This document shows, in pieces, positions 38,197-53,772 of a stretch of 53,772 nucleotides of DNA. The position numbers were made by a program, and so were the translations under genes. The stretch is from an uncultured Aminicenantes bacterium (GTDB taxonomy: Bacteria > Acidobacteriota > Aminicenantia > UBA2199), in the NCBI GenBank assembly GCA_965195285.1, contig CBDAFS010000046.1, positions 1 to 53,772 on the forward strand, given 5' to 3'. The number at the start of each line of letters is the position of its first letter. Position 1 is the first letter of the stretch. A model generated the notes under the pieces. That model was given only the letters and a program-made list of their open reading frames with translations, made no database searches and was not told where the DNA came from.

Positions 38197-38675
38197 TTTC
38201 TTCTGTCCTCCTTTTCAGGATTTAACCATTTGGTCTCAAACTTTTCCTTTTTACCTCCCAAGGGCATTGTCAGGATCTTTTTAAACACCACTGAGTCGAA
38301 ATCAATCTTAACAATCACACCATCATATACATTGACTCCGACAGTGACGTTAAAAGGAGGCTCAGCATTACTGGGACCGGATAGTAAAGCCCGGTATTTC
38401 CCCTTGGTAAAAACAATTCCTTCTAGTTTCAATTCATCAATGAGCAAACCGGCAATACCCTCCAGTTCCTCTCGGGCAGTTTTGGTTTTTTCTCCTTTAC
38501 TCAAATCCCAGAAAGGATCCCTTCTTCCCTGTGGCTGGTAAACGAATTCGCCCGGCGGGATTCCAGCTTGGCTATTGTCATCCGTCACCTTGGCTTCCTG
38601 CTCGTTTGCTTTATTATCTTGCTGGGCAGGAATTACCATGGCAAACAGCATGATCATCACAATTAAAAATTTCAT
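38193..38675 (-). CDS. pilP: Type IV pilus assembly protein PilP-like
   Basis: Y.P.GRRDPF and LKLEGIV motifs; position between pilO and pilQ. Confidence 0.8.
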   Translation of the reverse strand: MKFLIVMIMLFAMVIPAQQDNKANEQEAKVTDDNSQAGIPPGEFVYQPQGRRDPFWDLSKGEKTKTAREELEGIAGLLIDELKLEGIVFTKGKYRALLSGPSNAEPPFNVTVGVNVYDGVIVKIDFDSVVFKKILTMPLGGKKEKFETKWLNPEKEDRRK

Positions 38676-38716
38676 CGCCTTTCTCCTCTAAGTAATTACC
38701 CCCTCCAATTTCCTCG

Positions 38717-39298
38717 TCAAGGTCCTATGGTCTTTTTTTTATCTTTGTCTTCTCGGTATAAATAGGTTGTGGCGGTGAATGTGGCCCGGATGGAATATCC
38801 CCGATCCATCCGGGGCAAGGGGCTTATGCTCAGGCTGTCAACCGTGAAAATCTTCTTTAAGTTGGACAGCTGGTCAAAAAATATGCCCAGATTGTGGTAG
38901 TTGCCGTCCAGGATGATGGCAATGGGGTTTTCAATATACACCGGCTTGGGTCTGAGGTTCAGCGGATCATACTTCTGTATCTGTAAGCGGGCACCGGAAA
39001 TAATGGACTGAATCCGTTTTAATATGGCACTGATTTCTTCTTTTTCTGGCAAAATGGCCTTTAATTTTTCCAATACTGCCTGTTTGGTTTCCAGTTCCTC
39101 CCGGATCATCTTCAATTTACTTTCCTTTTGCTCGGCTCTCTTGATTTCGCGTTCAATGTTTTCAATTTCGGTTTCAATGCTATTGACAGTGTCCTGGGTG
39201 GGTGAATAATGAATATAGTAAAAAATTCCAATGGCAATTCCGCCCACTACCAGGAAAATCAATAATTGACCGTACCAAGGTAAACTCTGAAAATCCAT
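38717..39298 (-). CDS. pilO: Type IV pilus assembly protein PilO
   Basis: TM plus coiled coil, LPEKEEI..IL, GNYHNLGIFFD; start ATG 39298. Confidence 0.9.
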   Translation of the reverse strand: MDFQSLPWYGQLLIFLVVGGIAIGIFYYIHYSPTQDTVNSIETEIENIEREIKRAEQKESKLKMIREELETKQAVLEKLKAILPEKEEISAILKRIQSIISGARLQIQKYDPLNLRPKPVYIENPIAIILDGNYHNLGIFFDQLSNLKKIFTVDSLSISPLPRMDRGYSIRATFTATTYLYREDKDKKKTIGP

Positions 39299-39299
39299 G

Positions 39300-39896
39300 T
39301 TATACCGCCTTTTTATCCGACTGTTTCCGGTATCGACAATTGATGCTGAAGTTAAACACCTCGATCCCGCTGGCCCGGCTTCGCTGGGAGGAGTTGAGTC
39401 GGATATTGAAAAAATGATTGGTGCTCTGCAGGTTGTCAATAAAATTGGCTATCAAGTGATTGGTCCGGGCCCGACCGCTGATATTCAAAACCCCTCCGGA
39501 AAAATTGAGCCGGGTCAACCATACCCAGTCCGGAAGCACCCGGGAGAGTTCATCCATCATGAACACGGTCTGCTTCTGCCTGGCTTTCAGGTCACTGATT
39601 ACTTTGACCTTTCGGTCAAGTTCCTTTTTTGCCTTTTCCAGATGTTCCAGGGTCTTCAAGACATTGTCCAGCTCGGTTTTTCGGGCCTTTCGCTCGGCTA
39701 AGAAACGGGTGGAGCTATCCAGCCGGTAGGATTGAGTAAAATACATGACGCCAATAATGCCCACGGTGATGACAGCAGCCGCAATGGCCGAACCCACATG
39801 GACCTGGCTCTCTCTCTGTTTTTCGACAATGGTTGGGACCTCAACTCCTCTGCCAACATCTTTTTTTTCTGGACTTAATAAATTAACTTTAATCAT
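39300..39896 (-). CDS. pilN: Type IV pilus assembly protein PilN
   Basis: MIKVNLL, LPDWVWLT, FIDNLQ. Confidence 0.9.
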   Translation of the reverse strand: MIKVNLLSPEKKDVGRGVEVPTIVEKQRESQVHVGSAIAAAVITVGIIGVMYFTQSYRLDSSTRFLAERKARKTELDNVLKTLEHLEKAKKELDRKVKVISDLKARQKQTVFMMDELSRVLPDWVWLTRLNFSGGVLNISGRARTNHLIANFIDNLQSTNHFFNIRLNSSQRSRASGIEVFNFSINCRYRKQSDKKAV

Positions 39897-40987
39897 TTTA
39901 AATCTCCAACGGCTCTTAAAGCCAATCCCATGGCCACATTAAAGACCGGGGCCATGTCTTTGATAAACTCCAGGTCAAATTTCTTGGGATTGATATCAAT
40001 ATTATTGAAAGGATTGACAATCTCAACCGGGATATCAAACTCCTGGGAGAAAAAATCCACAATGGATTCCAGGTTGGCGGTTCCCCCGCTGATCAGAATA
40101 TTATCGATTCGGCCCTCGGTGGTATTGGAGCGGTGGAATTCAAAGGTCTTGCTGATTTCATTTTTCAGTTCGTTGAAAACCAGATTGATGGCCGGCTTGA
40201 CCGCTGCCGGCGAAACCCCCTCCACCTGCCTGCCCTTTTTCACCGATTCGGCCTTTTCATATTTCAGATTCAATTCTTTCTGGATCAAGTCGGTAAACTG
40301 ATTACCGCCAAAAGCAATATCCCGGACAAAAACAGGGTGTCCCGACCGGGCAATGATCACATTGGAAATGGAAGCGCCGATATTGATAATGGCGATACAG
40401 CGTTGGTGGTACATTTCGTAATTAGCCAGTACACTGTTCAAGATGGCAAATGATTCAAGATCAATGATATGGGCCACCTTATCGGCAATGGCAAAAACAT
40501 TCAGATAATCATTTATTTTTTCTTTTTTGACCGCGGCCAAAATTACACCCACCCGTTCTGGATGAACATCATCGGATTCAATAATTTCATAATCAATGTT
40601 GACTTCTTCAGGGGTAAAAGGGATATGCGGCCTGGCCTCCCACAGGATGTGTTCGTGCATTTCATTGGGACTGAGTCTCTGGACTTCGATTCGCTTCACG
40701 ATAACCGAGCTGCCCGATACTCCGAAAGACAACTTATTGGTTTTTGTTTTGCTCTCATAGAATATATGCTGGATGGCATCCACCACCGCCGTTGAATCCA
40801 TAATGCTTCCTTCGACAATGGATTGATAAGGAACCGGCTCATAGCCCAGGGAAACCAATTCATAGACGGTCTCCTTTCCCTTCTTCTTGGGTTTAAGTTC
40901 AACCAGCTTTAAGGCAAAACTTCCGATATCAAGTCCGATAACTTTCTTTGATTTTATAAAATCCAAAACAGGCATGCCAATCTCCAT
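39893..40987 (-). CDS. pilM: Type IV pilus assembly protein PilM
   Basis: IGLDIGS, NIGA, FGGNQFT, SGGTA, VAMGLALR actin-like motifs. Confidence 0.93.
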   Translation of the reverse strand: MEIGMPVLDFIKSKKVIGLDIGSFALKLVELKPKKKGKETVYELVSLGYEPVPYQSIVEGSIMDSTAVVDAIQHIFYESKTKTNKLSFGVSGSSVIVKRIEVQRLSPNEMHEHILWEARPHIPFTPEEVNIDYEIIESDDVHPERVGVILAAVKKEKINDYLNVFAIADKVAHIIDLESFAILNSVLANYEMYHQRCIAIINIGASISNVIIARSGHPVFVRDIAFGGNQFTDLIQKELNLKYEKAESVKKGRQVEGVSPAAVKPAINLVFNELKNEISKTFEFHRSNTTEGRIDNILISGGTANLESIVDFFSQEFDIPVEIVNPFNNIDINPKKFDLEFIKDMAPVFNVAMGLALRAVGDLK

Positions 40988-41307
40988 CTAAAATTGTTAT
41001 CATTTCAAACTTTTAGTAACATAGAAAAATTCAGATGTCAACTTTTTTTTTATTTTTGTAGTTATATTGGGCATGTCTGAACAGCACTGTTATAAAACCT
41101 TGAATATACCTTGGTTTCAAAAATGCCAGTCCTCAAATAGCCGATATACCAACATATTTTCGATTTCAACACCTGCTTTTCCGATATTATTTTGTTTTTA
41201 AAACCCGGATTTTATGGTAATTTCAGGTTAAAATAAAAAAATGAAATTTCAAATTATTTTTTATTCAAATATAAAAAAAGCATTCAAAGAAAGAAATGAC
41301 CCTGAAC

Positions 41308-41350
41308 TTGACATGTAATTCGTTTTTGTGTATATTGTAATTTGATTACA
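41308..41350 (+). promoter_or_regulatory. Promoter with palindromic operator
   Basis: TTGACA(41308-41313)-17 bp-TATATT(41331-41336); TGTAAT-TTG-ATTACA (41336-41350). Confidence 0.65.
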
Positions 41351-41445
41351 TTGGTTTTAAATACATGTAAGTATTGCCAGCGGAAAGCGATTACAGGCCT
41401 TCAACCGCGATACAAAGCCGGTATTCGCAGACCGAGGAGGATGAA

Positions 41446-41871
41446 ATGGACAATCAATCCAGTAGCCGCAAGTCGGAAAATCCGGCTTCAGGCCAGTCAT
41501 CAGTAGAAAAAGAGAAAAACGTCTTTGAAGAGTTCGGAGACCAGGTGGAAAAATTCGCCAGCAGAACCGTGGAATCACTGAAGAAAACCATTGACCGGGC
41601 CCTGAGTTCCAGAAACACGGTGTTAACCATACGGGTCAATGATGATGCCAACCGCAATCTCAACACCCTGGTAGAAGCCGGCCTGTTTAAAAGTCGGTCC
41701 GAAAGCGCCGCATACCTCATCGAGGAAGGGATCAAACAGCAGGAAGCGATCTTTCAAAAAATTTCCCAGAAAATGGAAAAAATCGAAAAACTGAAGGGAG
41801 AACTGTCCGAGATCATTTCCAAAGAAATATCAATCCAGGATAAGGAGAATAACAAAAAGAATAAAACGTAA
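41446..41871 (+). CDS. Ribbon-helix-helix-like DNA-binding protein with coiled coils
   Basis: TVLTIRVND...LVEAGLFKSRSE..AYLIEEG; GAGGAGG RBS before ATG 41446. Confidence 0.65.
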   Translation: MDNQSSSRKSENPASGQSSVEKEKNVFEEFGDQVEKFASRTVESLKKTIDRALSSRNTVLTIRVNDDANRNLNTLVEAGLFKSRSESAAYLIEEGIKQQEAIFQKISQKMEKIEKLKGELSEIISKEISIQDKENNKKNKT

Positions 41872-41903
41872 ATTGTAAATCGTGAATAGAACTGGAAAAG
41901 ATG

Positions 41904-41956
41904 GTAGGGGCGAATGGCAATTCGCCCTGATCACTCAAACCACCGTTTGCCCCTAC
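41904..41956. repeat. GTAG-family REP doublet (REPIN-like)
   Basis: GTAG-GGGCGAAT-GGCA-ATTCGCCC hairpin, with inverted partner TTTGCCCCTAC at the far end. Confidence 0.75.
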
Positions 41957-42014
41957 AAACCTTGAAATCCGGTTATTCAATTTATCTCCCGGGCTTTTGT
42001 GATATAATAAATGG

Positions 42015-43265
42015 ATGATTTTTCTGGATATCGGTTATTTCATCCTCCTGGCCCTATCGATCCCCCTCTGGATACAATTCCTGATCTTGAAAAGATACCG
42101 TCGGCTGTTCAAACACCGGTTTTCTCCGGCCCTGGAACCGGGTATAAAAAAAAGCTTGTGGATCCATGCCGTTTCAGTCGGGGAAGTCAGAAGCCTGGAA
42201 AACCTGATCAGCCAACTATCAACCACCCATAAAAACATCATCCTGTCGGTCACCACCCCCTCGGGTTATGACTACGCCCGAAAAACCCTTAGCGGGATCC
42301 GGGTGATCAACTCCCCGCTTGATTTCAGTTTTGTCATTAAAAAATTTTTAAAAATCCTGAATCCCTATCTACTCATACTCAATGAGCTGGAGATCTGGCC
42401 CAACTGGCTTTCCATCATGGAGAAAAACCGGATTCCGGTGGTTGTCATTAACGGCCGGATATCAGAACCCGCCTACAGGAAATACAAAAAATGCCGGTGG
42501 CTGTTTAAAAAATATTTCAACATGGTCGATTTTTATTTCCTGCAATCCGAAGTCCACAGGGAGCGATTCAAGACCTTTGACCTGCCTGAATCCAAACTCA
42601 AAGTCTGCGGAAATATTAAGGCCGATGAAGCCTTTGCCCTCAAGAAATCCCTCCCCCCCAGAACCGAAATCCTGAATTATCTGAAACTCAGCCCTCCCCG
42701 GAAAAAAATCATAGTCCTGGCCAGCACCCATGCCACTGATGAAAAAATTATTTTTTCGGCCCTGCCCGCCCTGACAGACAAATACGCCCTTATCATCGTC
42801 CCCCGGCATCCCCATCGGACCGTTCAAATTGAAAAACAGCTTGAAAAACTGGGCCTGACCCATGCCACCTGGTCCCGCTCCAGCCGCATCAATCCGGATG
42901 AATCTGTTTTTATCTTCGACCGGATCGGCTACCTGTTCCCTATCCTGGCCATATCCGATCTGGTCTTCATGGGTGGGACTTTTCAGAAAAAAATCGGAGG
43001 GCATAATTTATATGAACCGGCCATTAACAGCAACATAATCCTGGGAGGCCCCTGGTTCAATAATTTTCCGGATATCGGAGCGGAACTGGTCAAAAAAGGT
43101 GTTTATCGGATCATCCGGGACGGACCGGATTTTAAGGCCACGATTCAGGAACTCGAGGGCCTGGATCTGGAAAAGATGGGCCAGCAGGCCCTGAATACCG
43201 TTCTGAACCAAAAAGGATCAACAGAATGCATATTAAACCAGCTACAATCATTCATCAGGGAATGA
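42015..43265 (+). CDS. waaA: Kdo transferase
   Basis: WIHAVSVGE, ELEIWPN, NGRIS, ASTH, VPRHP.R, GGHN.YEP. Confidence 0.93.
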   Translation: MIFLDIGYFILLALSIPLWIQFLILKRYRRLFKHRFSPALEPGIKKSLWIHAVSVGEVRSLENLISQLSTTHKNIILSVTTPSGYDYARKTLSGIRVINSPLDFSFVIKKFLKILNPYLLILNELEIWPNWLSIMEKNRIPVVVINGRISEPAYRKYKKCRWLFKKYFNMVDFYFLQSEVHRERFKTFDLPESKLKVCGNIKADEAFALKKSLPPRTEILNYLKLSPPRKKIIVLASTHATDEKIIFSALPALTDKYALIIVPRHPHRTVQIEKQLEKLGLTHATWSRSSRINPDESVFIFDRIGYLFPILAISDLVFMGGTFQKKIGGHNLYEPAINSNIILGGPWFNNFPDIGAELVKKGVYRIIRDGPDFKATIQELEGLDLEKMGQQALNTVLNQKGSTECILNQLQSFIRE

Positions 43266-44221
43266 CCCCGGTATTGAACCTGGTGTCCATTCTGTTCAAA
43301 TGCTTTTCCCTGCTGACCCTCAGCCTGCGTTCCCTGGGCAAAAAAGCCTTTTCCGAGGCATTCATTATTTCAGTGGACAACCTGTCATTCGGCGGTACCG
43401 GTAAAACCACACTGGTTAACGAAATCTGTCAGGCCCTGAACCGGAAAAAACTGAAATTTGCCATTGTCAGCCGGGGGTACCGGTCCGGTTATGAAAAAAC
43501 AGGAGTCCGGGTTACCCCGGAGCACCGGGTTTCGGAGGTCGGGGATGAGGCCATTCTGCTGAGGAACAATTTTCCCCATCAGGAGATTTTTGTCGGTAAA
43601 AACCGGCATGAATCCATAAAAACGGCACTGGACAATGATCGGAACATCATTATTCTGGATGATGGCTTTCAGTCAACCGGAATCCGTAAAAACCTGAAGA
43701 TCATGCTGATCAATCCCCGCCATCCTTATTATTATCTGAGAAATTTCAAATGGTTGAGCCGTTGGGAAGACATTGTACTTCACCTGGCCGGGGAATCCGA
43801 ATTCCAGCATCCACTTAAGAGAAAAAAAAATCACCCCCTTCAGGGTTATTACGCTTTTTCTGTCCTGAAATTCCACCAGGCCTCCGGCCGAAAAACAGAC
43901 ATTGGAAATGCCACATTGCTGGGATTCTCGGCCCTGGGGGATAACCAGCGGTTTCGGGATGACCTCTCCCGGTTCAACCTGAAAGTTTTCAGGCCCTTTC
44001 CGGACCACCATGGATACAACCAGGGGGATCTGGCCCGGTTGAACACCCTCAAAAAACAAAACCGGATTGACTATCTGGTTTGCACGGAAAAGGATTTCAT
44101 CAAGCTCTCGGAATTGAATTTGACCGGGATTCCTTTAATTTATGCTAAAAATAGTATAAAATTTAGTTTTAACCTGAATGAGCTGATTGGGAAACATGTC
44201 AAAAAACACGGTTTTATTTAA
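43262..44221 (+). CDS. lpxK: Tetraacyldisaccharide 4'-kinase
   Basis: NLSFGGTGKT, SRGY, GDEA, LDDGFQ, FPDHH, TEKD. Confidence 0.92.
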   Translation: MTPVLNLVSILFKCFSLLTLSLRSLGKKAFSEAFIISVDNLSFGGTGKTTLVNEICQALNRKKLKFAIVSRGYRSGYEKTGVRVTPEHRVSEVGDEAILLRNNFPHQEIFVGKNRHESIKTALDNDRNIIILDDGFQSTGIRKNLKIMLINPRHPYYYLRNFKWLSRWEDIVLHLAGESEFQHPLKRKKNHPLQGYYAFSVLKFHQASGRKTDIGNATLLGFSALGDNQRFRDDLSRFNLKVFRPFPDHHGYNQGDLARLNTLKKQNRIDYLVCTEKDFIKLSELNLTGIPLIYAKNSIKFSFNLNELIGKHVKKHGFI

Positions 44222-45119
44222 ACACCGGATCGAATATGCCGTTTTCATGGCCTATATCACCAGCATACAATTATCTCCACTGTTCATGCTGCCCCTTCAC
44301 CGAGCCAGCCTGGATTTCTTGTTCCGGGTGCTGGGCCGCCGGCATTCGAAAATCGTGACCCACAACCTGGAGATGGCCTTCCCGGAAAAAAAGACATCGG
44401 AAATCAGACAATTGAAACGCAATGTATACAAGCATTTTGCCAAAATTTTCACCCAGATCATTTATTTGTATATCAAGAAAAAGCCTGAAAAGATCTTACC
44501 GGTAATCCAGATCCGGAACAGCCAGGCTCTTGAGAATAGTCTGAACAGGGGGAAAGGGGTCATTTTGTTTTCGGCTCATTTTGGAAACTGGGAGCTGGTT
44601 CCCTTTATTATCAGCCGGGAACTGAACCGAAAAACCTACAATGTAGCCCGGATCATGGATAATCCATTGATCGAAAAACGGGTAACCCAGTTTAGGGAGT
44701 ACATGGGATCCCGCATTATCTACAAAAAAGGTTCCATTAAAACCATTCTCAAGGAATTGCGGAACAACCAGATCATCGGCATGATCATTGACCAGAACAC
44801 CCTGCCCGAAGAGGGGGTATTTGTTGATTTTTTTTCCCGGAAAGTGTGTGCCGTACCCTCGGTATCCCTGCTCCACCTGAAGCGTAACATTCCCATTGTA
44901 CCGGTTTTTATCCATTACGAACCGAAAAAAATTGTCTTTGAGATCTCGGATGAAGTTGCCTTTCGGAAAACCGGAGATTTCCAGGATGATTTAATCCGGC
45001 TGACCCAGTACTGCAATACCCTCATCGAAGAAAAAATCAGGCAATTCCCCGAACAATGGCTGTGGTTTCACCAGCGCTGGAAATCCAAACCATCAGGAGA
45101 AAATCATGAGACCGGATAA
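44196..45119 (+). CDS. lpxL: Lipid A late acyltransferase (LpxL/HtrB family)
   Basis: AHFGNWE, IDQ, VDFF, PEQWLWFHQRWK. Confidence 0.88.
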   Translation: MSKNTVLFKHRIEYAVFMAYITSIQLSPLFMLPLHRASLDFLFRVLGRRHSKIVTHNLEMAFPEKKTSEIRQLKRNVYKHFAKIFTQIIYLYIKKKPEKILPVIQIRNSQALENSLNRGKGVILFSAHFGNWELVPFIISRELNRKTYNVARIMDNPLIEKRVTQFREYMGSRIIYKKGSIKTILKELRNNQIIGMIIDQNTLPEEGVFVDFFSRKVCAVPSVSLLHLKRNIPIVPVFIHYEPKKIVFEISDEVAFRKTGDFQDDLIRLTQYCNTLIEEKIRQFPEQWLWFHQRWKSKPSGENHETG

Positions 45120-45813
45120 CCGGAAGGATTCTGACATCAGGCGTATCAATATTGTTCCCGACTATATCCAGAACATACCCGGATCAGTACTGCTGGAACA
45201 GGGTAATACCCGGGTCATCTCCACCGCCACCTTTGAAAACAAAACCCCCCATTTCTTAAAAGACTCAAACAAGGGATGGATCAATGCGGAATACGCCATG
45301 CTCCCGGGTTCGGTTGGAATACAACGCTTGAAAAGGGAACGCTCCCGATCCCATTACCGCCATATTGAGATTCAACGGTTTATTGGCCGGGCACTGAGAA
45401 ATACCTTTGACATGAAGGCCATAACCGGGAAAACTTTTTTCGTGGATACCGACGTGATCCAGGCGGATGGCAGCACCCGCTGTGTGGCTCTTAATGCCGC
45501 CATGCTGGTAGTAGTCAAGTTATTGAAATATCTTGTTTTTGAAAACCTGATGGCTGAAATACCCGAACTGGAGATCATTGCCGCCGTATCAGTCGGGATC
45601 AAAGATGACAAAATCCTGGCAGATCTCAACTACAGGGAAGACTCGACCGCGGATGCCGACATCAATATCGTGTCTTCGGAAAAGGAAAACATAATCGAAA
45701 TCCAGGCCTTTGCCGAAGAAAAACCGATCAGCAACCGGTTGACTCGAAAGGCCATTGATCTGGGTATTGAAAAAAACCTGGAAATCATTCAGATTTTAAA
45801 AAACCATCTTTAA
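45106..45813 (+). CDS. rph: Ribonuclease PH
   Basis: GWINAEYAMLP, EIQRFIGRALR, DVIQADGSTR, DLNYRED. Confidence 0.9.
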   Translation: MRPDNRKDSDIRRINIVPDYIQNIPGSVLLEQGNTRVISTATFENKTPHFLKDSNKGWINAEYAMLPGSVGIQRLKRERSRSHYRHIEIQRFIGRALRNTFDMKAITGKTFFVDTDVIQADGSTRCVALNAAMLVVVKLLKYLVFENLMAEIPELEIIAAVSVGIKDDKILADLNYREDSTADADINIVSSEKENIIEIQAFAEEKPISNRLTRKAIDLGIEKNLEIIQILKNHL

Positions 45814-45979
45814 CCCGGCCCCGGTTTCCAGCCTGAAATCTATTTCCTGAACCAGGTTTCGGGAGGGCTTACCCAGCACAAAAAAAGTAAAGGTTGTCAA
45901 CAGAAACCAACAAAAGCGAATGGATTGTCGAACCCATTGCGGGTTCGAATCTACGAACGCAGGTGCAGGTAGAAACGGG

Positions 45980-47314
45980 TCAACCGGTTTTTAAACGGGT
46001 GAGTTTATGAAATCTGGTTGTCAGAAGCAGTGCTGAGACGGTAAGGCCGAGAAAAAGCCCGACCCATACTCCTTGAGCTTTGTAATTCATCACAAAGCCA
46101 AACAGGTAACCACAGGGCAGGCCGATAACCCAATAGGCAATGAAGGTAATAATTGTGGGGAACCTGGTGTCCGCCAAGCCCCGTAATATGCCTAATGAAA
46201 CCACCTGGACACCATCGGAAATTTGGAATAATGCTGCAATAATCAACAGAGATGAGGCAATATTAATTACGGAAACATCAGTAATATACAATTGCGGCAA
46301 TTGTTTTCTAAAAATAATAAATAAAATTCCAAAGGATCCCATGACCGCTGCTGATAAAAAAATTGATATAAATCCTGCCCATCTGGCAGAGACAAAATCC
46401 TTTCGGCCAACGGCATTCCCCACCCGTACTGAAGCCGAGGACGATATCCCCAAGCCGAACATAAAAGTAATGGCGGCCATATTTAACGCAATCTGGTGGG
46501 CCGCCAGTTCCTTTGCCCCAAACCAGCCAATCAAAACCGCTGCTCCGGCAAATGCGCCAATCTCAAAAAAATTTTGAAAGGCGCTGGCCAGGCCAAGTTT
46601 TACCAGCTTCCTCATCATCTTCCAATTTATCTTTTTATAATGTAATCCGGGGGCGAAAGGTTTGAATTTACGGGAAAATAATATGTAAGCTGCGAGTACA
46701 CAAGCCATCACCGTACGGGTACCGAAGGTAGAATAACCGGCCCCTTTCAGCCCCATGGCCGGGAAACCCCAGTGACCGAAAATAAAAATCCAGTTGAACA
46801 ATGCGTTAAGGATATTGGCTGCGATTATTATAATCATTGCTGGTTTCATGAAAAACAAACCCTCGGAAAACTGACGGTAAACCTGAAATATCAAAACCGG
46901 GATAATGGACCACCCCAATATTTTCATGTAAGGTATCGTCTCATTCACAACCTCTGTTGATTGCCTTAACCCTGGAATCATCCCGGTCATCCCGAAGGTG
47001 ATTACAGTTAAAACGATTGCAATGCCGAGTCCCGCCAGCAACCCTTGCCTTAAAACAACCCCGCATTCTGAAAATTCTCTTTTGCCGTTAGCCATGGCCA
47101 CGTAGGGAGTTATTGCATATGAAAAACCAATCCCCACCACCAGGATCAGAAAAAAAATACTATTGGCAAGGGCAGAGGCAGCCAGGGGAATCACACCGAG
47201 CCTGCCCACCATCAGGCTGTCCACTACTCCCATCATCATGTGTCCAAGCTGTCCAATAATAACAGGGATTGCCAGTTTTATGGTTGTTTTTAGCTGGTAT
47301 TTCAGTTCTCTCAT
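45980..47314 (-). CDS. MATE family efflux transporter (NorM-like)
   Basis: 12-TM pattern, VDSLMVGRLG, AAHQIA, VRVGNAVG, FQISDGVQ. Confidence 0.9.
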   Translation of the reverse strand: MRELKYQLKTTIKLAIPVIIGQLGHMMMGVVDSLMVGRLGVIPLAASALANSIFFLILVVGIGFSYAITPYVAMANGKREFSECGVVLRQGLLAGLGIAIVLTVITFGMTGMIPGLRQSTEVVNETIPYMKILGWSIIPVLIFQVYRQFSEGLFFMKPAMIIIIAANILNALFNWIFIFGHWGFPAMGLKGAGYSTFGTRTVMACVLAAYILFSRKFKPFAPGLHYKKINWKMMRKLVKLGLASAFQNFFEIGAFAGAAVLIGWFGAKELAAHQIALNMAAITFMFGLGISSSASVRVGNAVGRKDFVSARWAGFISIFLSAAVMGSFGILFIIFRKQLPQLYITDVSVINIASSLLIIAALFQISDGVQVVSLGILRGLADTRFPTIITFIAYWVIGLPCGYLFGFVMNYKAQGVWVGLFLGLTVSALLLTTRFHKLTRLKTG

Positions 47315-47609
47315 TCATCTCCCATAGCGATCAGTCTATTTTTAGCCTTGAATTATACCATTTCTGTTCGAGATTTGACAAAATGGATAAATTGATGTAT
47401 TCATAATGTACCATGAATGATTCAGTGAGACCGGGAGGAGAAACAATTAATCAGATGAGTGAATCTCTTCAGGAAATCATTTATATCAACCGTTTTAATG
47501 GATTATAAAATCATATCCTGATCAACCTTTTTCGATTTAAATTCCCTTTTTGAAGGATCAAAAAAATCCGTTTTTCTTCCCAAAAAATTTAAAAAAAGGA
47601 GATTCAAAC

Positions 47610-48764
47610 ATGAAAGTTATCATATTAGGTGCTGGATTGGTTGGCGGCCCCATGGCGATTGACCTGGCAAAGGATTCAAATTTTGATGTGACCGCTGTGG
47701 ATGTCAATCCACAGGTTATGGAAAATCTGAAAGAACATTCAATAAAAACCATAAAATCAGATTTATCCAATCCGGAGAATATCATTCATCTCATTGCGGA
47801 TCATGATATGGTGGTTAATGCGGTTCCCGGTTTTATAGGATTCTCTACATTAAAAGCCGTTATTGAAGCGAAAAAAAATGTGGTGGATATCGCATTTTAT
47901 GATGAGGATCCCTTCGAACTTGATGAATTGGCCAAAAATAAGGGCGTCACCGCAATTGTTGATTGCGGTGTATGTCCAGGGATGAGCAACCTGATCATTG
48001 GTCACCTGGATCAATCGATAGAGTTGGATTCCATACTACTATACGTGGGTGGGCTTCCGGAGGAGAGAAAGCTGCCATTTGAATATAAAGCAGGATTTTC
48101 ACCCCTGGATGTCATTGAAATATATGAACGACCCGCCAGAATGATTGAAAATTTCCAAATGGTTTCAAAACCGGCTCTATCTGAACCGGAGCTCATCAAT
48201 TTTCCTCAAATTGGCACATTAGAGGCGTTTAACAGTGATGGGATTCGTTCCCTCATGCGAACCATTAAAGCCAGAAATATTCAGGAAAAAACCCTCCGTT
48301 ATCCGGGGCATATTCAAAAAATTGCTCTACTCAAGGACATCGGCTTATTTGACCTGCAGGAGATTGATGTGCAGGGTCAAAAAATCCGCCCCCGAGACTT
48401 AACAGTCAGGCTTCTGTTTCCCATGTGGGAAATGAAGAAAGATGATTCTGATTTAACCATCCTTAAATTTATCGTGGTGGGTAAAAAAGAGGGAAAAACA
48501 TTAGAATATACCTATGACCTTTTGGATCGTTATGATCCGGAAACCAAAACCAGTTCCATGGCCCGGACCACTGGTTATACCGCTACTGCAGCGGTTCGCA
48601 TGCTGGAACAAAAGTTGTTCAACCAGAAAGGAATCTGCCCTCCGGAATATATTGGAAAGCACAAAAATTGTGTTGATTTTATTTTTGAGAAATTGCGGGA
48701 GAGAAATATCTTCTACCATGAATCCGTAAAAGAACTGGCTCCAGAAATCAACAGTTTTGGGTAA
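47610..48764 (+). CDS. Saccharopine dehydrogenase family protein (lysine 6-dehydrogenase-like)
   Basis: LGAGLVG, DCGVCPGMSN, VGGLP, KTLRYPGH, SMARTTGY; ATG 47610 after AAGGAG. Confidence 0.85.
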   Translation: MKVIILGAGLVGGPMAIDLAKDSNFDVTAVDVNPQVMENLKEHSIKTIKSDLSNPENIIHLIADHDMVVNAVPGFIGFSTLKAVIEAKKNVVDIAFYDEDPFELDELAKNKGVTAIVDCGVCPGMSNLIIGHLDQSIELDSILLYVGGLPEERKLPFEYKAGFSPLDVIEIYERPARMIENFQMVSKPALSEPELINFPQIGTLEAFNSDGIRSLMRTIKARNIQEKTLRYPGHIQKIALLKDIGLFDLQEIDVQGQKIRPRDLTVRLLFPMWEMKKDDSDLTILKFIVVGKKEGKTLEYTYDLLDRYDPETKTSSMARTTGYTATAAVRMLEQKLFNQKGICPPEYIGKHKNCVDFIFEKLRERNIFYHESVKELAPEINSFG

Positions 48765-48776
48765 TCGGATTTTTCA

Positions 48777-48920
48777 AATTTGTCGAACCCATTGGGGGTT
48801 CTCACCACAGCCAGGATTCAAAAAAATGATACGCGAGGTATCATTTTTTTGAATCGGAGGGACTGGGGTGGATGGACAACCGCTGTTGCCCACCCTTACG
48901 GACTACTCATTTCGTTCGCT
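48777..48920 (-). repeat. tRNA-Ser 3'-tail repeat unit (distal copy)
   Basis: Contains CGGAGGGACTGGG (48855-48867), an 18-bp-stem hairpin (48815-48855) and TTGTCGAACCCATTGGGGGTTC, all repeated near 53.0-53.3 kb. Confidence 0.9.
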
Positions 48921-49019
48921 CGTGTGAATTTTGACTCCACGCCAAAATTCATCAAACTCAAGTTCCCTAAAATTGAATTGTTTCCTGTTCAAATTCCCGC
49001 AATAAATACTCAAATATTT

Positions 49020-52000
49020 TTAATTAAAAGGAAGAGCTAAAGGCGAGCAATTAATATTTATTTGGTGCTCTAAGTAGTTCAATTTATTTGTTGCTTTTTT
49101 TATACTAAATTTTTTAATTCTTTTTTTATGTTCAGATCGGATGAATTGCGAACAAATATTCAACAACAACCAACCACTTTTATTTCTATCGGAACCCTGA
49201 CTTTTTAAAAATGGTGGAATTATCTCAATAAAAACATTTTCAGAGAAACGAAGTGAGATAGAATCATCTGAAAGGATTTTACATATAAATTCAGCGATAG
49301 TCTTTATTGAAGTGAGAGGAGCCACTCCATATTCCTTTGAAAGAATCATGTCTAAATGAAATGCTCTAATACATTCCGGTTTAAAAGACAAGAAACTATC
49401 ACCTTGAAACACAGCTTTGAACAAAATGTCAGAACTAATTGGTAAAAATTTACACCTATAAAAGCAAAGTAATTCAAATAAATCCAAATACTCAGAAAAC
49501 TGGATCAGGTTTTTCTCAACCATTTCTTTAACTAGAAACAAGGAAGAACAATACTCCGGGATGCTTTTTGAAGTTTCGGATGCATTAGTACTTAGGTAAA
49601 GAGAATCCTCTGTTAATAATGCTAAATTGTCCCTCTGAGCCAAAACACAAGCATCAACTATTTCAGGTGGCATGTTTTGCTCAATAAAACTATTATTTTT
49701 GCTGGCATTAGAAATTGCTATAATATTCTCCGATTTATCCTCAATTAATTTAATACAATTTATTAAATTTTCCTTCTTAGCTACCAAAAAATCAGATGAT
49801 ACTTTCCCAAATTTCGGCTCACCCTTAACATAGCTAAGATAGAGGTTCTGTCCATTTTTAGAATTGAAATATTCAACCATATTATATAAAAAATTGAGAA
49901 CTGATTGACTTACTTTTAAATTCGGAATTGTCTTAAATACTTTGCTAAATAATTTACTTTCCACCAAAAATAATGTTGATATCCCATCAATAATAGCTTC
50001 AGAGTCATTAAGGATTCTTATTGCCACTTTCTTGTGCTTTAAAAATTCTTGCCTATTGCCCAAAATATTATGAATATACCCCTTTTGTTCTGCGACAATC
50101 TTGCCTAGAGCACGTAAAATTCCATTTTCACTTTTTACAAGAAAGGCAAAGGGCAAGAAGCTTTCACAGTAAAATTGAAAAAATTCATTTTCTGCTCTTG
50201 TTTGATCTTCAAGGAATCGCTTCAAATAGGAAGTGTCGATTGTTTTACCATCCGAAGGTATTTCTATAGGAATGGCATAGTCCCATCTTCTTTCATGAGA
50301 TTGAAGTTTAAAATTATCTTGCACTTTAATGAAAATATAACCTTCAATAGATAGAATGTTTTCAATTATTCTCTCTTCAATCATAGAACTATATTTATCT
50401 TCTGGAAAATCAATTTTGCTTCCTAATTTCCTACCAATAAAAGAAGAATATTTCGAATCAGTGTTAGAAATTTTTGTTGCTCCAAGTCCTATACCATCTC
50501 CAATATAATACCAATGATCTTGGTTTTTAATTTTTACAAAACTGTCATTCCTTACATTGGCCATGGATGAAACAGATATCTTAGATAGATTATCTATCTG
50601 AGTTAAAATTAAGAATAATCTGCCATATTCCTCTGAATTTGGATTCTTTAAAGTTTTTACCCCATCTACAACAGCCATTAATGCCTTTCTTGGGTTATCA
50701 TTTTGCAGATAAGTTTCCGCTTCAATTCTGAATTTGATTTCAGGAGTTTTAATAATCTCTGAATAATCTTCCAAAAGGCTTAACGCTTCAACAGTCTTTC
50801 CTATCTTTAATTGTGCTTGAATCACTTGTGTCAACACACCCTCTAGTACTTCTGGATTTAAATGATGAATGATTAATTCCTGTTCCTTTAGAAGACTTCG
50901 TCCTATTTGAATTACTCTTGAATTTTGCCCAAGATTATATGTAGCAAAAAAAAGTCTTAAATCAGTAATAAGTTTGTCTTTTGATGTCAAATTAAAGGAT
51001 TTAAATCTTTCAAGGATCTTAGATTCGATTTCCCAAGCCTGCATTTTGTGAGCTAAGTCCGAAAATATTTTGCAATCCAAAAAACAGATCTGAGATATAT
51101 CTATTTGTTTTAGAATCTCAAAAGCCTCATCAAGAAAATTGTTTTCAAAATAATATAGAAGCCAGACTTTATCATTCTGTATACGCCCATCCTGTGGGAG
51201 GCCAGTGATGATTTCTTTCCGGATTACTGGAAAGTCCTTGAGACCATTCGCTAATCCAAGCATAAATTGGAGATTCTTGTTGGCAAAACTAAGCACCTCT
51301 TGAATATTTCCATCTACAATATTGGAAATAAAATCAATTCCCTTCTTCATTCCCAAGGTTTCAAAAAATTCTTTCCCAGATGTGGTTAAATTTCCTAACT
51401 GACAAAATTGAAGAAGTAAAGAATAGATGAGTCCTTCAGAATAATTAGTTCGCTTATTCTTCAAATAATCTGAAAGCTTTTCTAGATCATTCTCTTCAAG
51501 CAGTACATCGAAAAGAATTCTACTTAAAAGAGATTCGGTTTTATCATCCAAATAACAAGAATAGATGCTATCAAATATCATTCTTGCAATAGCTTCAAAA
51601 GTATCATACTGATCTAACTCAAGCAAAAGGTCTAATTTTATTATATGTAAATTATTTATTTTTCTTTGGCTGACCCTTCCCAAATTAGAAAATTTCTCGA
51701 ATAGTTTGTCTATATTTTCGAGGACTTCTTCAATCTGATTGAATGACCTTTGTTTATCATCAAATAATTTAGCACTAAGAATAACAAATCTATTAACATA
51801 ATTATCAAACCTCTCTGGATTTAAACTTATTGATATGTCTGCAAATTCAAGGGCCCTTGATAACTTCCCCTCTTTTAAAAAAAAAATCGAAATAATTCTA
51901 TAAAAAATCGATTGAATTCGTTTTTCTTCAGAATGAACACCTTGGATAATTTTCTCTGGATCGAACTCCATCTTGTCATCTAAGTCTCTTATCAATTTTT

Positions 52001-52850
52001 GGATTTTGAATAACCAATGTTCCGTATCTATACTTTCCGCAAGAGACATTAATTCATCATCTTTATCTAAATCACTCTCATAAAAATAAATTTCAGCTAA
52101 ATACAAAATTGCTCGTATATCAGAAGAGTGACATTGAATAATTGATTCATATATTTTCTTGGCTTCTTCTGCATCTTCATTGAGTAGGGCCGCCTTGCCT
52201 TCTAGAATTCTGAGTTCTAGCAACAATTCTGGATCCACCCCATTCTTTAAAGTTGATTTAACTTTTTCAATTCCCTTCAAAACATAGTCAACATGACCTC
52301 GATCAAGGTCAATCTGGACACTTTCGATTAGGTTGTGAACAATTTTGATTGAATGGCGAACATCAATATGAAATCCTAAATCTATCAATTGGGTATTATC
52401 CAATCTAAGAAAAATTTCTTCGAGATTTTTTAAAGAGAATATTTCGAACTCAATATTTAGATAATTATTTTTATGAACAGACAAAGCATCCAGCAATTGT
52501 GGAGATTTGCCTCGTTCTTTATCATTAAAAACAAAACACCATTTTTTGATTGGGAATTTTTTGTTCCAATATTCGTAAAGTGGAGGAAAGTCATTTAATA
52601 GCTTTCGAGCTGCATCAGCTTGCTTTATTTCAGGACATTCAGGCGCATAAACCTGATAATAAATCCCTTTACTTATTCTAAATCCATCATTTTTTCTATC
52701 TCCTAATCTCCCAGACGGTTTAATTTTTTCGAAATCATCGAATGCCGCTCTCATTATTCCTTCAAAAAATGTTTGAAATTCAATTCCATTTTTTCTAAAT
52801 ACATGATTAAAAAATTGTGCTTTTAGATACTGTTTATCCAGTATTCTCAT
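49020..52850 (-). CDS. Large AT-rich multidomain protein: nuclease-like N-terminus, TPRs, GreA/B-C-like domain, PIN-like domain (putative defence)
   Basis: GRLGDRKNDG..YYQVYAP; helical repeats; ISNTDSKYSSFIGRKLG; IIDGIS...DACVLA...LLTED. Confidence 0.7.
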   Translation of the reverse strand: MRILDKQYLKAQFFNHVFRKNGIEFQTFFEGIMRAAFDDFEKIKPSGRLGDRKNDGFRISKGIYYQVYAPECPEIKQADAARKLLNDFPPLYEYWNKKFPIKKWCFVFNDKERGKSPQLLDALSVHKNNYLNIEFEIFSLKNLEEIFLRLDNTQLIDLGFHIDVRHSIKIVHNLIESVQIDLDRGHVDYVLKGIEKVKSTLKNGVDPELLLELRILEGKAALLNEDAEEAKKIYESIIQCHSSDIRAILYLAEIYFYESDLDKDDELMSLAESIDTEHWLFKIQKLIRDLDDKMEFDPEKIIQGVHSEEKRIQSIFYRIISIFFLKEGKLSRALEFADISISLNPERFDNYVNRFVILSAKLFDDKQRSFNQIEEVLENIDKLFEKFSNLGRVSQRKINNLHIIKLDLLLELDQYDTFEAIARMIFDSIYSCYLDDKTESLLSRILFDVLLEENDLEKLSDYLKNKRTNYSEGLIYSLLLQFCQLGNLTTSGKEFFETLGMKKGIDFISNIVDGNIQEVLSFANKNLQFMLGLANGLKDFPVIRKEIITGLPQDGRIQNDKVWLLYYFENNFLDEAFEILKQIDISQICFLDCKIFSDLAHKMQAWEIESKILERFKSFNLTSKDKLITDLRLFFATYNLGQNSRVIQIGRSLLKEQELIIHHLNPEVLEGVLTQVIQAQLKIGKTVEALSLLEDYSEIIKTPEIKFRIEAETYLQNDNPRKALMAVVDGVKTLKNPNSEEYGRLFLILTQIDNLSKISVSSMANVRNDSFVKIKNQDHWYYIGDGIGLGATKISNTDSKYSSFIGRKLGSKIDFPEDKYSSMIEERIIENILSIEGYIFIKVQDNFKLQSHERRWDYAIPIEIPSDGKTIDTSYLKRFLEDQTRAENEFFQFYCESFLPFAFLVKSENGILRALGKIVAEQKGYIHNILGNRQEFLKHKKVAIRILNDSEAIIDGISTLFLVESKLFSKVFKTIPNLKVSQSVLNFLYNMVEYFNSKNGQNLYLSYVKGEPKFGKVSSDFLVAKKENLINCIKLIEDKSENIIAISNASKNNSFIEQNMPPEIVDACVLAQRDNLALLTEDSLYLSTNASETSKSIPEYCSSLFLVKEMVEKNLIQFSEYLDLFELLCFYRCKFLPISSDILFKAVFQGDSFLSFKPECIRAFHLDMILSKEYGVAPLTSIKTIAEFICKILSDDSISLRFSENVFIEIIPPFLKSQGSDRNKSGWLLLNICSQFIRSEHKKRIKKFSIKKATNKLNYLEHQININCSPLALPFN

Positions 52851-53042
52851 AAATCTTTCACCAACATCTTATGTTTCATAAAATCACAACTTTAATATTT
52901 GACTAAATCGATAAATTATATTCTTGCTCCAATCTCCCTAAGTTTTTCTTGTAATACAAGTTTAGTTAAAATTATAGCATATATTTTTATAGGTCGGTTA
53001 TTATGTTTAAATTTTTTTAACCGGTCAATTCTAGTATGTCCG

Positions 53043-53271
53043 AATTTGTCGAACCCATTGGGGGTTCTCACCAACAAAATTGTGCCATGCACCGTATGGT
53101 ACATGGCGGAGGGACTGGGGTGGATGGACAACCGCTGTTGCCCACCCTGACGGGCTGCTCACTGCGTTCACATTCCAAATTCGAGTCTTTCGAATTTGTC
53201 GAACCCATTGTGGGTTCTCACCGCAGCCAAGATTCAAAAAAATGATACACAAGGTATCATTTTTTTGAATC
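53043..53271 (-). repeat. tRNA-Ser 3'-tail repeat units (proximal copies)
   Basis: Tail copy at 53107-53119, 164 bp from the true tRNA end; core motif at 53046 and 53196. Confidence 0.9.
53231..53271 (-). terminator. Hairpin immediately 3' of tRNA-Ser (terminator-like or processing signal)
   Basis: Perfect 18-bp stem GATTCAAAAAAATGATAC-N5-GTATCATTTTTTTGAATC; AT-rich stem with no classical U-tract. Confidence 0.45.
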
Positions 53272-53357
53272 GGAGGGACTGGGATTCGAACCCAGGGACC
53301 CTGTGATGGGTCAACGATTTTCGAGACCGTCCCGTTCAACCGCTCCGGCATCCCTCC
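53271..53357 (-). tRNA. tRNA-Ser(CGA)
   Basis: GGAGGGA acceptor, anticodon loop CT-CGA-AA, long variable arm GACCC-ATCACA-GGGTC, GTTCGAATC T-loop, G discriminator; CCA not encoded. Confidence 0.95.
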
Positions 53358-53772
53358 TTTCCTGAAAAAATGCCTTTAACATATCGGAAACTTGCTGCTG
53401 CAAGATTCCGGATTCCACCTGAATGGAATGGTTGTAAATATCATTGATACGTTCGAAAGCCCCGGTGGAAAAAATCCCGGTTTTGGGATCCCGGGCCGCA
53501 TACACCAGTCGCCTGACACGGGCATGCACCAGGGCTGAAAAACACATCAGGCAGGGTTCCAGGGTTACATAGATTTCAGAACCGGATAAACGGTAGTTTC
53601 GGATCTTTTTACCGGCCTTCCTCAGGGCCACCACTTCGGCATGGGCACTGGAATCGGATTTCCCGATCATTGAATTATATCCCCGGCCGATTATATCTCC
53701 GTCCCGAACCACCACAGCCCCCACCGGCACTTCACCCCGGTCCCGGGCCATCCTGGCTTCCGCCAGTGCCTG
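53311..53772 (-). CDS. tadA: tRNA adenosine(34) deaminase, 5' end truncated by the window edge
   Basis: EVPVGAV, AHAE, VTLEPCLMC, DPKTG; the frame stays open to the window end (QALAEARM...). Confidence 0.93.
   Translation of the reverse strand, partial: QALAEARMARDRGEVPVGAVVVRDGDIIGRGYNSMIGKSDSSAHAEVVALRKAGKKIRNYRLSGSEIYVTLEPCLMCFSALVHARVRRLVYAARDPKTGIFSTGAFERINDIYNHSIQVESGILQQQVSDMLKAFFQERRDAGAVERDGLENR

Follow-up and report, generated by a model that had tools for sequence, protein, structure and literature searches.

What is the function of the single long open reading frame (ORF) which stands out by its base composition near the right end of the DNA analyzed here? The window, that is the whole stretch of 53,772 nt under analysis (contig CBDAFS010000046.1 of assembly GCA_965195285.1), stems from an uncultured Aminicenantes bacterium, and the gene in question occupies positions 49020..52850 of the minus strand and encodes a protein of 1276 aa. 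A reading made from the sequence alone had proposed that this protein joins a nuclease head, a TPR region, a GreA/B C-terminal-like domain and a PIN domain and that it is a candidate anti-phage system. Family membership and architecture support this proposal, and we consider it probable that the gene encodes a stand-alone, horizontally acquired anti-phage (conflict) protein of the TPR-GreA/B-C-PIN (TGP) family.

TGP proteins have been predicted computationally as conflict systems, as the sequence-only reading had stated (Kaur et al. 2021, PMC8195603). According to the part of this paper available to us, the TGP system possesses a constant but fast-evolving core which consists of TPR repeats, the GreA/B-C domain and a new version of the PIN domain. 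The N-terminal position is variable, with a restriction endonuclease (REase) already among the 13 heads listed, and the genes mostly stand alone (Kaur, Iyer, Burroughs and Aravind, eLife 2021, PMC8195603). The architecture of the window protein has therewith already been published; the present analysis adds the link of its head to Lamassu-like systems, the footprint of its acquisition and the finding that 44 related loci show no conserved partner gene.

The gene is a single ORF starting with ATG that runs from position 52850 down to 49020, stop codon included. The GC content is 0.311 for the gene, 0.315 for the insert in which it lies (48750–53045, see below) and 0.464 for the remaining window, in line with the marked AT-richness pointed out before. 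In steps of 500 nt the values lie between 0.286 and 0.336 from 49000 to 52999, the drop beginning at about 49000 and ending at about 53000; the flank from 40000 to 48999 has 0.376–0.492 with the exception of 41000–41499 (0.330), and 53000–53499 has 0.480. Every motif quoted in the sequence-only reading is present in the translation, namely GDRKNDG at residues 50–56, YQVYAP at 65–70, ISNTDSKYSSFIGRKLG at 794–810, AIIDG at 952–956, DACVLA at 1066–1071 and LLTED at 1078–1082. A word-indexed search returned 41 further proteins of 823–1292 aa, most of them matching over the full length (E values from 0 to 5e-142, 32–42% identity, 64–100% coverage), and we therefore regard the ORF as a true coding frame and not as a chance one. 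An exhaustive phmmer search with residues 740–1276 against 1.84 billion cluster representatives gave 185 proteins at E ≤ 0.001, 170 at ≤ 1e-10 and 128 at ≤ 1e-30. Among the 150 matches listed, 96 are 1153–1396 aa long with the match starting near residue 740, the others being shorter and probably fragments. The host genome contains one copy of the gene.

We aligned 34 family members, each of which was also scanned singly against Pfam, and built two AlphaFold2 models on family alignments, one of residues 1–200 (pLDDT 86.6) and one of residues 740–1276 (pLDDT 88.1). Both models were compared by VIA-align with 48,161 representative chains and show the folds that had been expected for the individual domains. 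With Foldseek neither model had a PDB match at E ≤ 0.001, a PDB sequence-profile search with the whole family as query gave weak TPR-type matches only, and an NCBIfam scan gave no meaningful match.

The PIN domain (residues 948–1119; 49494..50009, minus strand) was recognized both by Pfam and by structure. The family PF20698, described as 'PIN domain associated with the TPR-GreAB-C-PIN system', matches residues 953–1085 with an E value of 1.2e-4 and is the sole Pfam match of the window protein besides sub-threshold TPR matches; all 34 family members match PF20698, with a best E value of 3e-10. In VIA-align the domain (model residues 209–380) resembles 1y82 (Z 9.7, 132 aligned residues), SSO1118 (Z 8.6) and VapC chains (Z 8.3–8.5). 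The PIN-like acidic set that had been spotted in the translation is conserved in the 34 sequences: D955 is at least 90% conserved and E1037, D1066 and D1082 are invariant. These four residues fit the pattern of PIN RNases, and judged from their positions they would be the catalytic ones.

The long helical region predicted before the PIN domain is a TPR or helical repeat array at residues ~190–740 (50631..52283, minus strand). For the window protein itself the TPR_14 and TPR_19 matches are sub-threshold only, and the array is seen mainly in the family, where TPR_14 is found in 31 of the 34 members (best E 1.1e-9) and TPR_19 in 25. Between the repeats and the PIN domain a GreA/B C-terminal-like domain had been proposed, and at these residues (763–834; 50349..50564, minus strand) the model (its residues 24–95) aligns with residues 80–156 of Thermus aquaticus Gfh1, which belong to the C-terminal domain (Z 7.5, rmsd 2.7, 69 aligned residues, 14% identity). 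The protein ends in a helical tail (residues 1137–1274, model residues 398–535; 49029..49442, minus strand) which resembles MIF4G/MA3/HEAT-like helical repeats with Z 8–9, a range that the tool deems unreliable for helical folds. We regard the assignments of the head and of the PIN domain as well supported and that of the Gre-like domain as moderately supported.

The head comprises residues 1–165 (52356..52850, minus strand). Its model contains the alpha-beta-beta-beta-alpha-beta core fold of restriction endonucleases, and the best VIA-align match is the FokI cleavage domain (Z 8.6, 139 aligned residues, rmsd 4.0), with further rows for the R.BspD6I small subunit (Z 7.9), AF1548 (Z 7.7), N.BspD6I (Z 7.7), EcoT38I (Z 7.6), LlaBIII (Z 7.6) and the Avs4 head (Z 5.7). 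Judged by title, 20 of the best 50 rows are restriction or nicking enzymes and another 11 are nucleases of CRISPR-ancillary, CBASS, Shedu, Hachiman or Avs systems; the nuclease-like fold suspected from the first motifs is borne out by these 31 rows. On the level of sequence families no Pfam nuclease or GreA_GreB family was found at E ≤ 0.01 in any of the 34 members.

A search with residues 1–170 among proteins shorter than 701 aa gave 470 matches at E ≤ 0.01 among 652 candidates. Among the 120 matches listed, the first ten are truncated TGP proteins and 94 carry PF20275, the CTD10 domain of ABC-three component systems. The PF20275 proteins are ~300–350 aa long and are 34–50% (mostly 38–48%) identical to the head over 72–100% of the query; in a sample scanned with Pfam CTD10 sits at about residues 180–310. 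PADLOC assigns the C-termini of these LmuA-like proteins to the candidate family PDC-M68A and their N-termini weakly to the LmuA model PDLC03852. The PADLOC search that had been recommended for the window protein gave a divided answer: the full-length protein has no match, and the head alone matches PDLC03852 with an E value of 2.6e-4. In all three LmuA-like loci examined (L060, L062 and L063) the next gene encodes a PDC-M68B/LmuB-like ABC ATPase (E 5e-88 in L060). Two of these loci lie in genomes of the same family as the host, L062 (G019:C76, 1489–3484) and L063 (G007:C3, 3–2016 and 2478–3488), where a PDC-M68A protein with the same head stands together with the ATPase; the PDC-M68 pair of L063 has a DrmD/SNF2-like helicase gene as its neighbor.

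Which residues of the head are conserved bears on the question whether it is a nuclease. In the 34-sequence TGP alignment E30, D51, N54, D55, Q66, Y68, K83, N109 and K111 are kept, and D51, N54, D55, Q66, Y68, K83, N109, D110 and E144 are invariant in both TGP heads and LmuA-like proteins; at position 26 the TGP heads have Q versus E in the LmuA-like proteins. Strand 2 of the model begins at D55, and strand 3 spans I63–Y68. Strand 3 reads Q66-V-Y68 without exception in the 34 TGP proteins and in a 20-sequence alignment with LmuA-like proteins, so that the canonical D...(D/E)-x-K is replaced by D...Q-x-Y, with D51 and D55 preceding strand 2. Conserved lysines are found outside of strand 3, K83 in helix 2 and K111 after strand 4. 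Since the canonical (D/E)xK lysine is missing, a DNase activity of the head is a prediction only.

The protein could accordingly be a TGP member whose head is no nuclease but a degenerate restriction-endonuclease fold used for DNA or ligand binding or for oligomerization, leaving the PIN domain as the sole catalytic effector. The invariant strand 3 without lysine in both alignments and the empty Foldseek search speak for this explanation. However, the invariance of D51, N54, D55, Q66, Y68, K83, N109 and D110 across TGP and LmuA-like proteins speaks for a working site, the lysine could come from K83 or K111, and in LmuA-like proteins the head domain is the only candidate effector beside the ATPase. 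There are also active restriction enzymes without a strand-3 lysine (BamHI, BglII). We consider a non-nuclease head unlikely. On sequence grounds the head appears to be a mobile effector module serving two different sensor systems, and that it is common to both with its invariant residues kept argues for a working and not a decayed domain.

Possibly the head even represents a distinct, non-canonical clade of restriction endonucleases characterized by Asp51/Asp55, Gln66-x-Tyr68 and a lysine contributed by helix 2 or strand 4, a plug-in killing module moving between the TGP core and the Lamassu-like ABC ATPase (PDC-M68); we put this forward tentatively. If true, both sensors would switch the head on alike, probably by bringing heads together, and the single-polypeptide form would be a compact model for coupling a Gre-like RNA polymerase probe to DNA destruction. 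Heads related to that of the window protein occur in seven Klebsiella phage records and matches in 121 plasmid records; most of the 15 plasmid records listed match the head domain only, and several are annotated as 'ABC-three component system protein'. In a protein atlas the head reaches 0.9 or more with unnamed clusters only, and the CTD10 and Mrr_cat clusters at 0.85–0.87 are merely leads. A cluster of 270-aa proteins with 1215 member sequences (P0141) has the same head with a C-terminal HEPN_Apea-like match which is sub-threshold (21.5 bits versus a cut-off of 24.4), and the head would then occur in a third architecture.

How did the gene come to its present position? The comparison with a genome of the same genus (G003) shows that it lies in an insert. 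A G003 contig of 2371 nt (C4) matches window positions 47362–48749 with 93.9% identity, continues with 172 nt of its own and resumes at 53046–53703 with 93.1% identity. It skips 48750–53045, and this AT-rich stretch with the TGP gene (48750..53045) is therefore an insertion relative to G003. The insert of ~4.3 kb encodes no integrase and contains no other long ORF. It is bounded by a perfect 31-nt direct repeat whose left copy is at 48777..48807 and whose right copy is at 53043..53073 (100% identical, spacing 4266 nt); G003 has a single copy here. The core of the repeat is a short hairpin-forming motif, TTGTCGAACCCATTGNGGGTTC, which is present four times in the window and always intergenic (45925–45946, 48780–48801, 53046–53067 and 53196–53217), two of the copies bounding the insert. 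Elsewhere in the 3.28-Mb assembly one copy with two mismatches was found (G000:C45:38937–38958).

On the left the gene is neighbored by a gene of the saccharopine-dehydrogenase family (47550–48764, plus strand), on the right by a tRNA-Ser gene followed by tadA. The tRNA-Ser (CGA anticodon; 53271..53357, minus strand; ARAGORN, Rfam tRNA 51.7 bits) has its 3′ end toward the insert. A 63-nt repeat that starts with the last 13 nt of this tRNA is found at 48855..48917, its second copy (92%) being at 53107–53169, and a 103-nt repeat (91%) duplicates the terminator region of the tRNA gene. Within the insert, 150 nt upstream of the start codon, there is a promoter-like site TTGACC-17-CATAAT (53000..53028, minus strand) which agrees with the consensus at 10 of 12 positions; it comes from a consensus scan only, and as the scan gave 28 sites versus 20.0 ± 4.4 in shuffles this is weak evidence. 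The tadA frame, encoding a tRNA adenosine deaminase-like protein (53311–53751, minus strand), extends 47 nt into the tRNA-Ser (53311–53357) before its stop, a same-strand overlap.

Contigs of a second study (three sequencing runs) cover the flanks 48000–48884 and 53107–53772, mostly 95–100% alike, and leave 48965–53017 uncovered, apart from a spurious 18-nt piece. None of them spans the gap, and the flanks from this study are therefore not counted as a second empty site. One contig of the probable source run ends where the 63-nt repeat starts (53107), and the AT-rich sequence that it has ahead of this point differs from that of the window; the tRNA-Ser site may be occupied by other cargo in a co-occurring strain.

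Neither neighbor of the insert turned out to be a habitual site of the family. A saccharopine-dehydrogenase gene lies beside the TGP genes of two other loci (L011 and L019) as well, but these proteins are only 23–24% identical to that of the window, and we therefore regard the neighborhood as coincidence and not as a shared hot spot. A tRNA site as a family habit was likewise rejected, as eight of nine related loci scanned have no tRNA gene beside the homologue; the sole tRNA (L007) is ~1.9 kb away from the homologue and inside a neighboring ORF.

Among 40 relatives of the host, i.e., three genomes of the same genus (70–91% complete), 21 of the same family and 16 of the same class, none encodes a full-length homologue, and in the six where anything matched, the matches are confined to the head domain or are weak TPR matches. 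Homologues are found much farther afield. A scan of one genome per species gave 182 stretches encoding a relative, and the 60 loci kept are from more than 10 phyla: Acidobacteriota, Patescibacteria, Bacillota, Bacteroidota, Planctomycetota, Thermodesulfobacteriota, Chloroflexota and Nitrospirota, together with Ignavibacteria, Elusimicrobia, Spirochaetota and one Bathyarchaeia genome. Leaving aside L060, an LmuA-like locus with the head only, and short matches to part of the protein, the relatives are 25–39% identical to the query. The difference in GC content (0.31 versus 0.46), the empty site in G003, the 31-nt repeat, the absence from the 40 relatives and the spread over more than 10 phyla at this low identity support horizontal acquisition of the gene.

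For the neighborhoods we clustered 347 ORFs of at least 80 aa within 4 kb of the 44 loci which match over most of the protein. The largest cluster comprises 5 of the 44 loci, and there is therefore no conserved partner gene. A Pfam scan of the 114 nearest ORFs of at least 140 aa showed a defense or mobile-element gene at 23 of the 44 loci (27 if four ambiguous ones are included), a share for which there is no background rate to compare. As such genes we counted restriction-modification, TIR, SAVED, AbiEii, AIPR, HEPN, toxin–antitoxin, integrase/recombinase/transposase, conjugation and phage structural genes. At four of the 44 loci (L006, L007, L022 and L043) the gene adjoining the TGP homologue encodes a LexA-like protein, having a LexA DNA-binding domain and/or a peptidase S24 domain; at L007 it is a 1372-aa protein headed by the LexA DNA-binding domain. 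The family is sporadically distributed and fast-diverging and has no conserved partner gene.

This distribution bears on the idea that the protein does not serve defense at all but is a cellular transcription or RNA-surveillance factor, Gre-like, which brings a PIN RNase to the stalled RNA polymerase. Both a Gre-like and an RNase domain are present, and a substitute for Gre factors is conceivable because PF01272 (GreA_GreB) has no match in the host genome, which is 94.9% complete, and was found in only 6 of 25 genomes of the class searched; canonical Gre factors seem to be uncommon in the lineage among these genomes. Such a factor would be expected to be vertically inherited and conserved, yet the gene is absent from all 40 relatives including three of the same genus, lies in an insert of foreign composition with an empty site in a congener and is patchy across more than 10 phyla at 25–39% identity. 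The neighborhoods of its homologues are rich in defense and mobile-element genes, and the head is common to Lamassu-like effectors. We consider a housekeeping function very improbable.

The mobility, the patchy distribution, the neighborhoods, the shared effector head and a tested relative, Agp, make a defense role of the window protein likely. Agp of Escherichia coli (ECOR25), a TGP protein of 1094 aa, carries an amyloid motif at its N-terminus. According to the accessible part of the preprint, Agp and the pore-former Bab jointly confer abortive infection against T5 and some Drexlerviridae, and the GreA/B-C mutants S628L and L634P of Agp lose defense (Ibarlosa et al. 2024, bioRxiv 10.1101/2024.11.07.622273). 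The statement of the sequence-only reading that no mechanism is known is in this respect out of date. A literature search for antiphage TGP proteins yielded only this preprint, and no match for the names TPR-GreAB-C-PIN or PF20698.

The model which was proposed for TGP systems, as far as the available text of the paper sets it out, has the Gre-like domain engage a hijacked polymerase at the beta′ coiled coil of the secondary channel; the transcript, once extruded, is cut by the PIN domain, and the N-terminal effector is unleashed if this first line fails (PMC8195603). The sequence-only reading, with sensing of an interference with RNA polymerase answered by DNase and RNase, restates this published hypothesis. 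For the window protein we envisage along these lines that the Gre-like domain on its TPR scaffold would dock on RNA polymerase at the secondary-channel rim and report a phage-altered polymerase, that the PIN domain would cut RNA at the docked polymerase, and that on activation, probably by oligomerization, the restriction-endonuclease-fold head would degrade DNA and abort the infection. Polymerase docking, RNA and DNA cleavage, activation by oligomerization and protection against phages are in this proposal suggested by the family literature.

Several points weigh against assigning the window protein to the TGP family and to defense. The full-length protein has no PADLOC match and neither model a Foldseek match, and for PF20698 the window protein scores 22.8 bits, below the cut-off of 27.8. 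The empty-site contig is a short 2.4-kb piece of a fragmented metagenome-assembled genome. With Q66-x-Y68 in place of (D/E)-x-K the head may not cut DNA in the usual way, and an activity of the window protein or of its subfamily is only predicted. The Gre assignment comes from one structural row, whose Z of 7.5 is in a range that the tool calls possibly a common arrangement only. The best hhalign match with a GreA profile (six GreA proteins from genomes of the same class), at residues 790–837, is not significant (E 0.034, probability 1.5%); the matched site of GreA falls in the same place as the structural match to Gfh1, and a K-I-S...G-(K/R)-x-x-G motif is found there. Concerning Agp, the accessible part of the preprint states that the PIN mutant D762N loses defense but that the protein is destabilized, that polymerase binding is proposed and not measured, and that no Bab-independent activity was seen (bioRxiv 10.1101/2024.11.07.622273).

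The last points also feed a different explanation of how a defense protein of this kind could sense phages. Its Gre-like domain might have no contact to RNA polymerase at all, and an FKBP-like fold together with the TPR repeats might recognize nucleic acid or a phage protein by direct binding, in the manner of the sensor repeats of Avs/STAND proteins. TPR arrays often serve as ligand sensors, and the weak similarity to Gre as well as the status of polymerase binding by Agp would fit. A complex prediction of residues 744–859 with residues 625–760 of the genome's own beta′ subunit (the rim helices) returned 'no answer' with a score of 0.00 and is no evidence either way. Against direct sensing speak two mutations of Agp, modeled on polymerase-contact residues of GreA, which according to the accessible part of the preprint abolish both defense and T5-induced signaling (bioRxiv 10.1101/2024.11.07.622273), and the constancy of the Gre-like domain in the family core as described in the available part of PMC8195603. 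We consider direct sensing quite unlikely and favor a protein which senses the state of the polymerase.

The TGP proteins are among the few predicted immune sensors believed to monitor the state of RNA polymerase in their own host. A single-gene, nuclease-headed member is a simple construct with which polymerase binding by the Gre-like domain, the need for both nucleases and the switching-on could be addressed. As a catalog entry the protein adds little; its main value lies in this compact test construct and in the documented link between the effector heads of TGP and Lamassu-like systems.

Farther upstream the window contains a type IV pilus operon (35725–40987; pilM-, pilN-, pilO- and pilQ-like ORFs) and genes for the LPS core and lipid A (42015–45813; kdtA-, lpxK- and lauroyl-acyltransferase-like) together with rph. 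These genes were named from their translations and not by a family search. Both groups look like ordinary housekeeping genes of host composition.

We finally compared the window protein with known systems. With the FokI cleavage domain and with Mrr-like and Type ISP nuclease heads the head shares the PD-(D/E)xK core fold, the aspartate before strand 2 and a glutamine as first residue of the strand-3 motif; it differs in sequence (6–12% identity) and in having Q-x-Y without lysine in strand 3. With GreA, GreB and Gfh1 the protein has the fold of the C-terminal globular domain in common, but this domain is embedded in 1276 aa, lacks the N-terminal coiled-coil finger reaching the active site and shows no significant sequence similarity.

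The head is most closely connected to Lamassu. In the available part of PMC10586767 the ABC-3C systems are equated with the Lamassu family, and LmuA consists of an N-terminal effector and a variable C-terminal docking domain. The LmuA type with CTD10 (PF20275; PDC-M68A with PDC-M68B) is homologous to the N-terminal 165 residues of the window protein, with 38–48% identity over 81–100% of residues 1–170, and shares all the invariant residues. The LmuA-like proteins, however, are ~300–320 aa long, end in CTD10 and adjoin a LmuB-like ABC ATPase, whereas the window protein has neither: PF20275 gives no match at E ≤ 1, the TPR array occupies the position of CTD10, and the sensor is the TPR-Gre-PIN core within the same polypeptide. 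We therefore rejected the possibility that the window protein is a Lamassu component.

Agp, the only tested relative, has the same TPR-GreA/B-C-PIN core, although it is too distant to be found by phmmer with residues 740–1276, the 185 matches being mostly ~1270 aa long. Agp signals by a BASS11 amyloid motif to the separate partner Bab, whereas the window protein lacks a conserved partner and has a nuclease-fold head of 165 aa fused to it. A pairing of the Bab type was not found at the window, where the N-terminus is folded and no small neighbor is conserved (44 loci), the short ORFs of the insert not having been searched for Bell-domain homology. With neither an amyloid motif nor a partner the protein is not part of a pair of the Bab/Agp type.

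With the TGP systems, in contrast, there is no essential difference, the PF20698 score being just below the Pfam cut-off. The core domains are in the same order, the head is variable and here of the REase fold, and the gene stands alone. Every defining feature of TGP systems that could be tested was found in the window protein, and its membership in this family is well supported.

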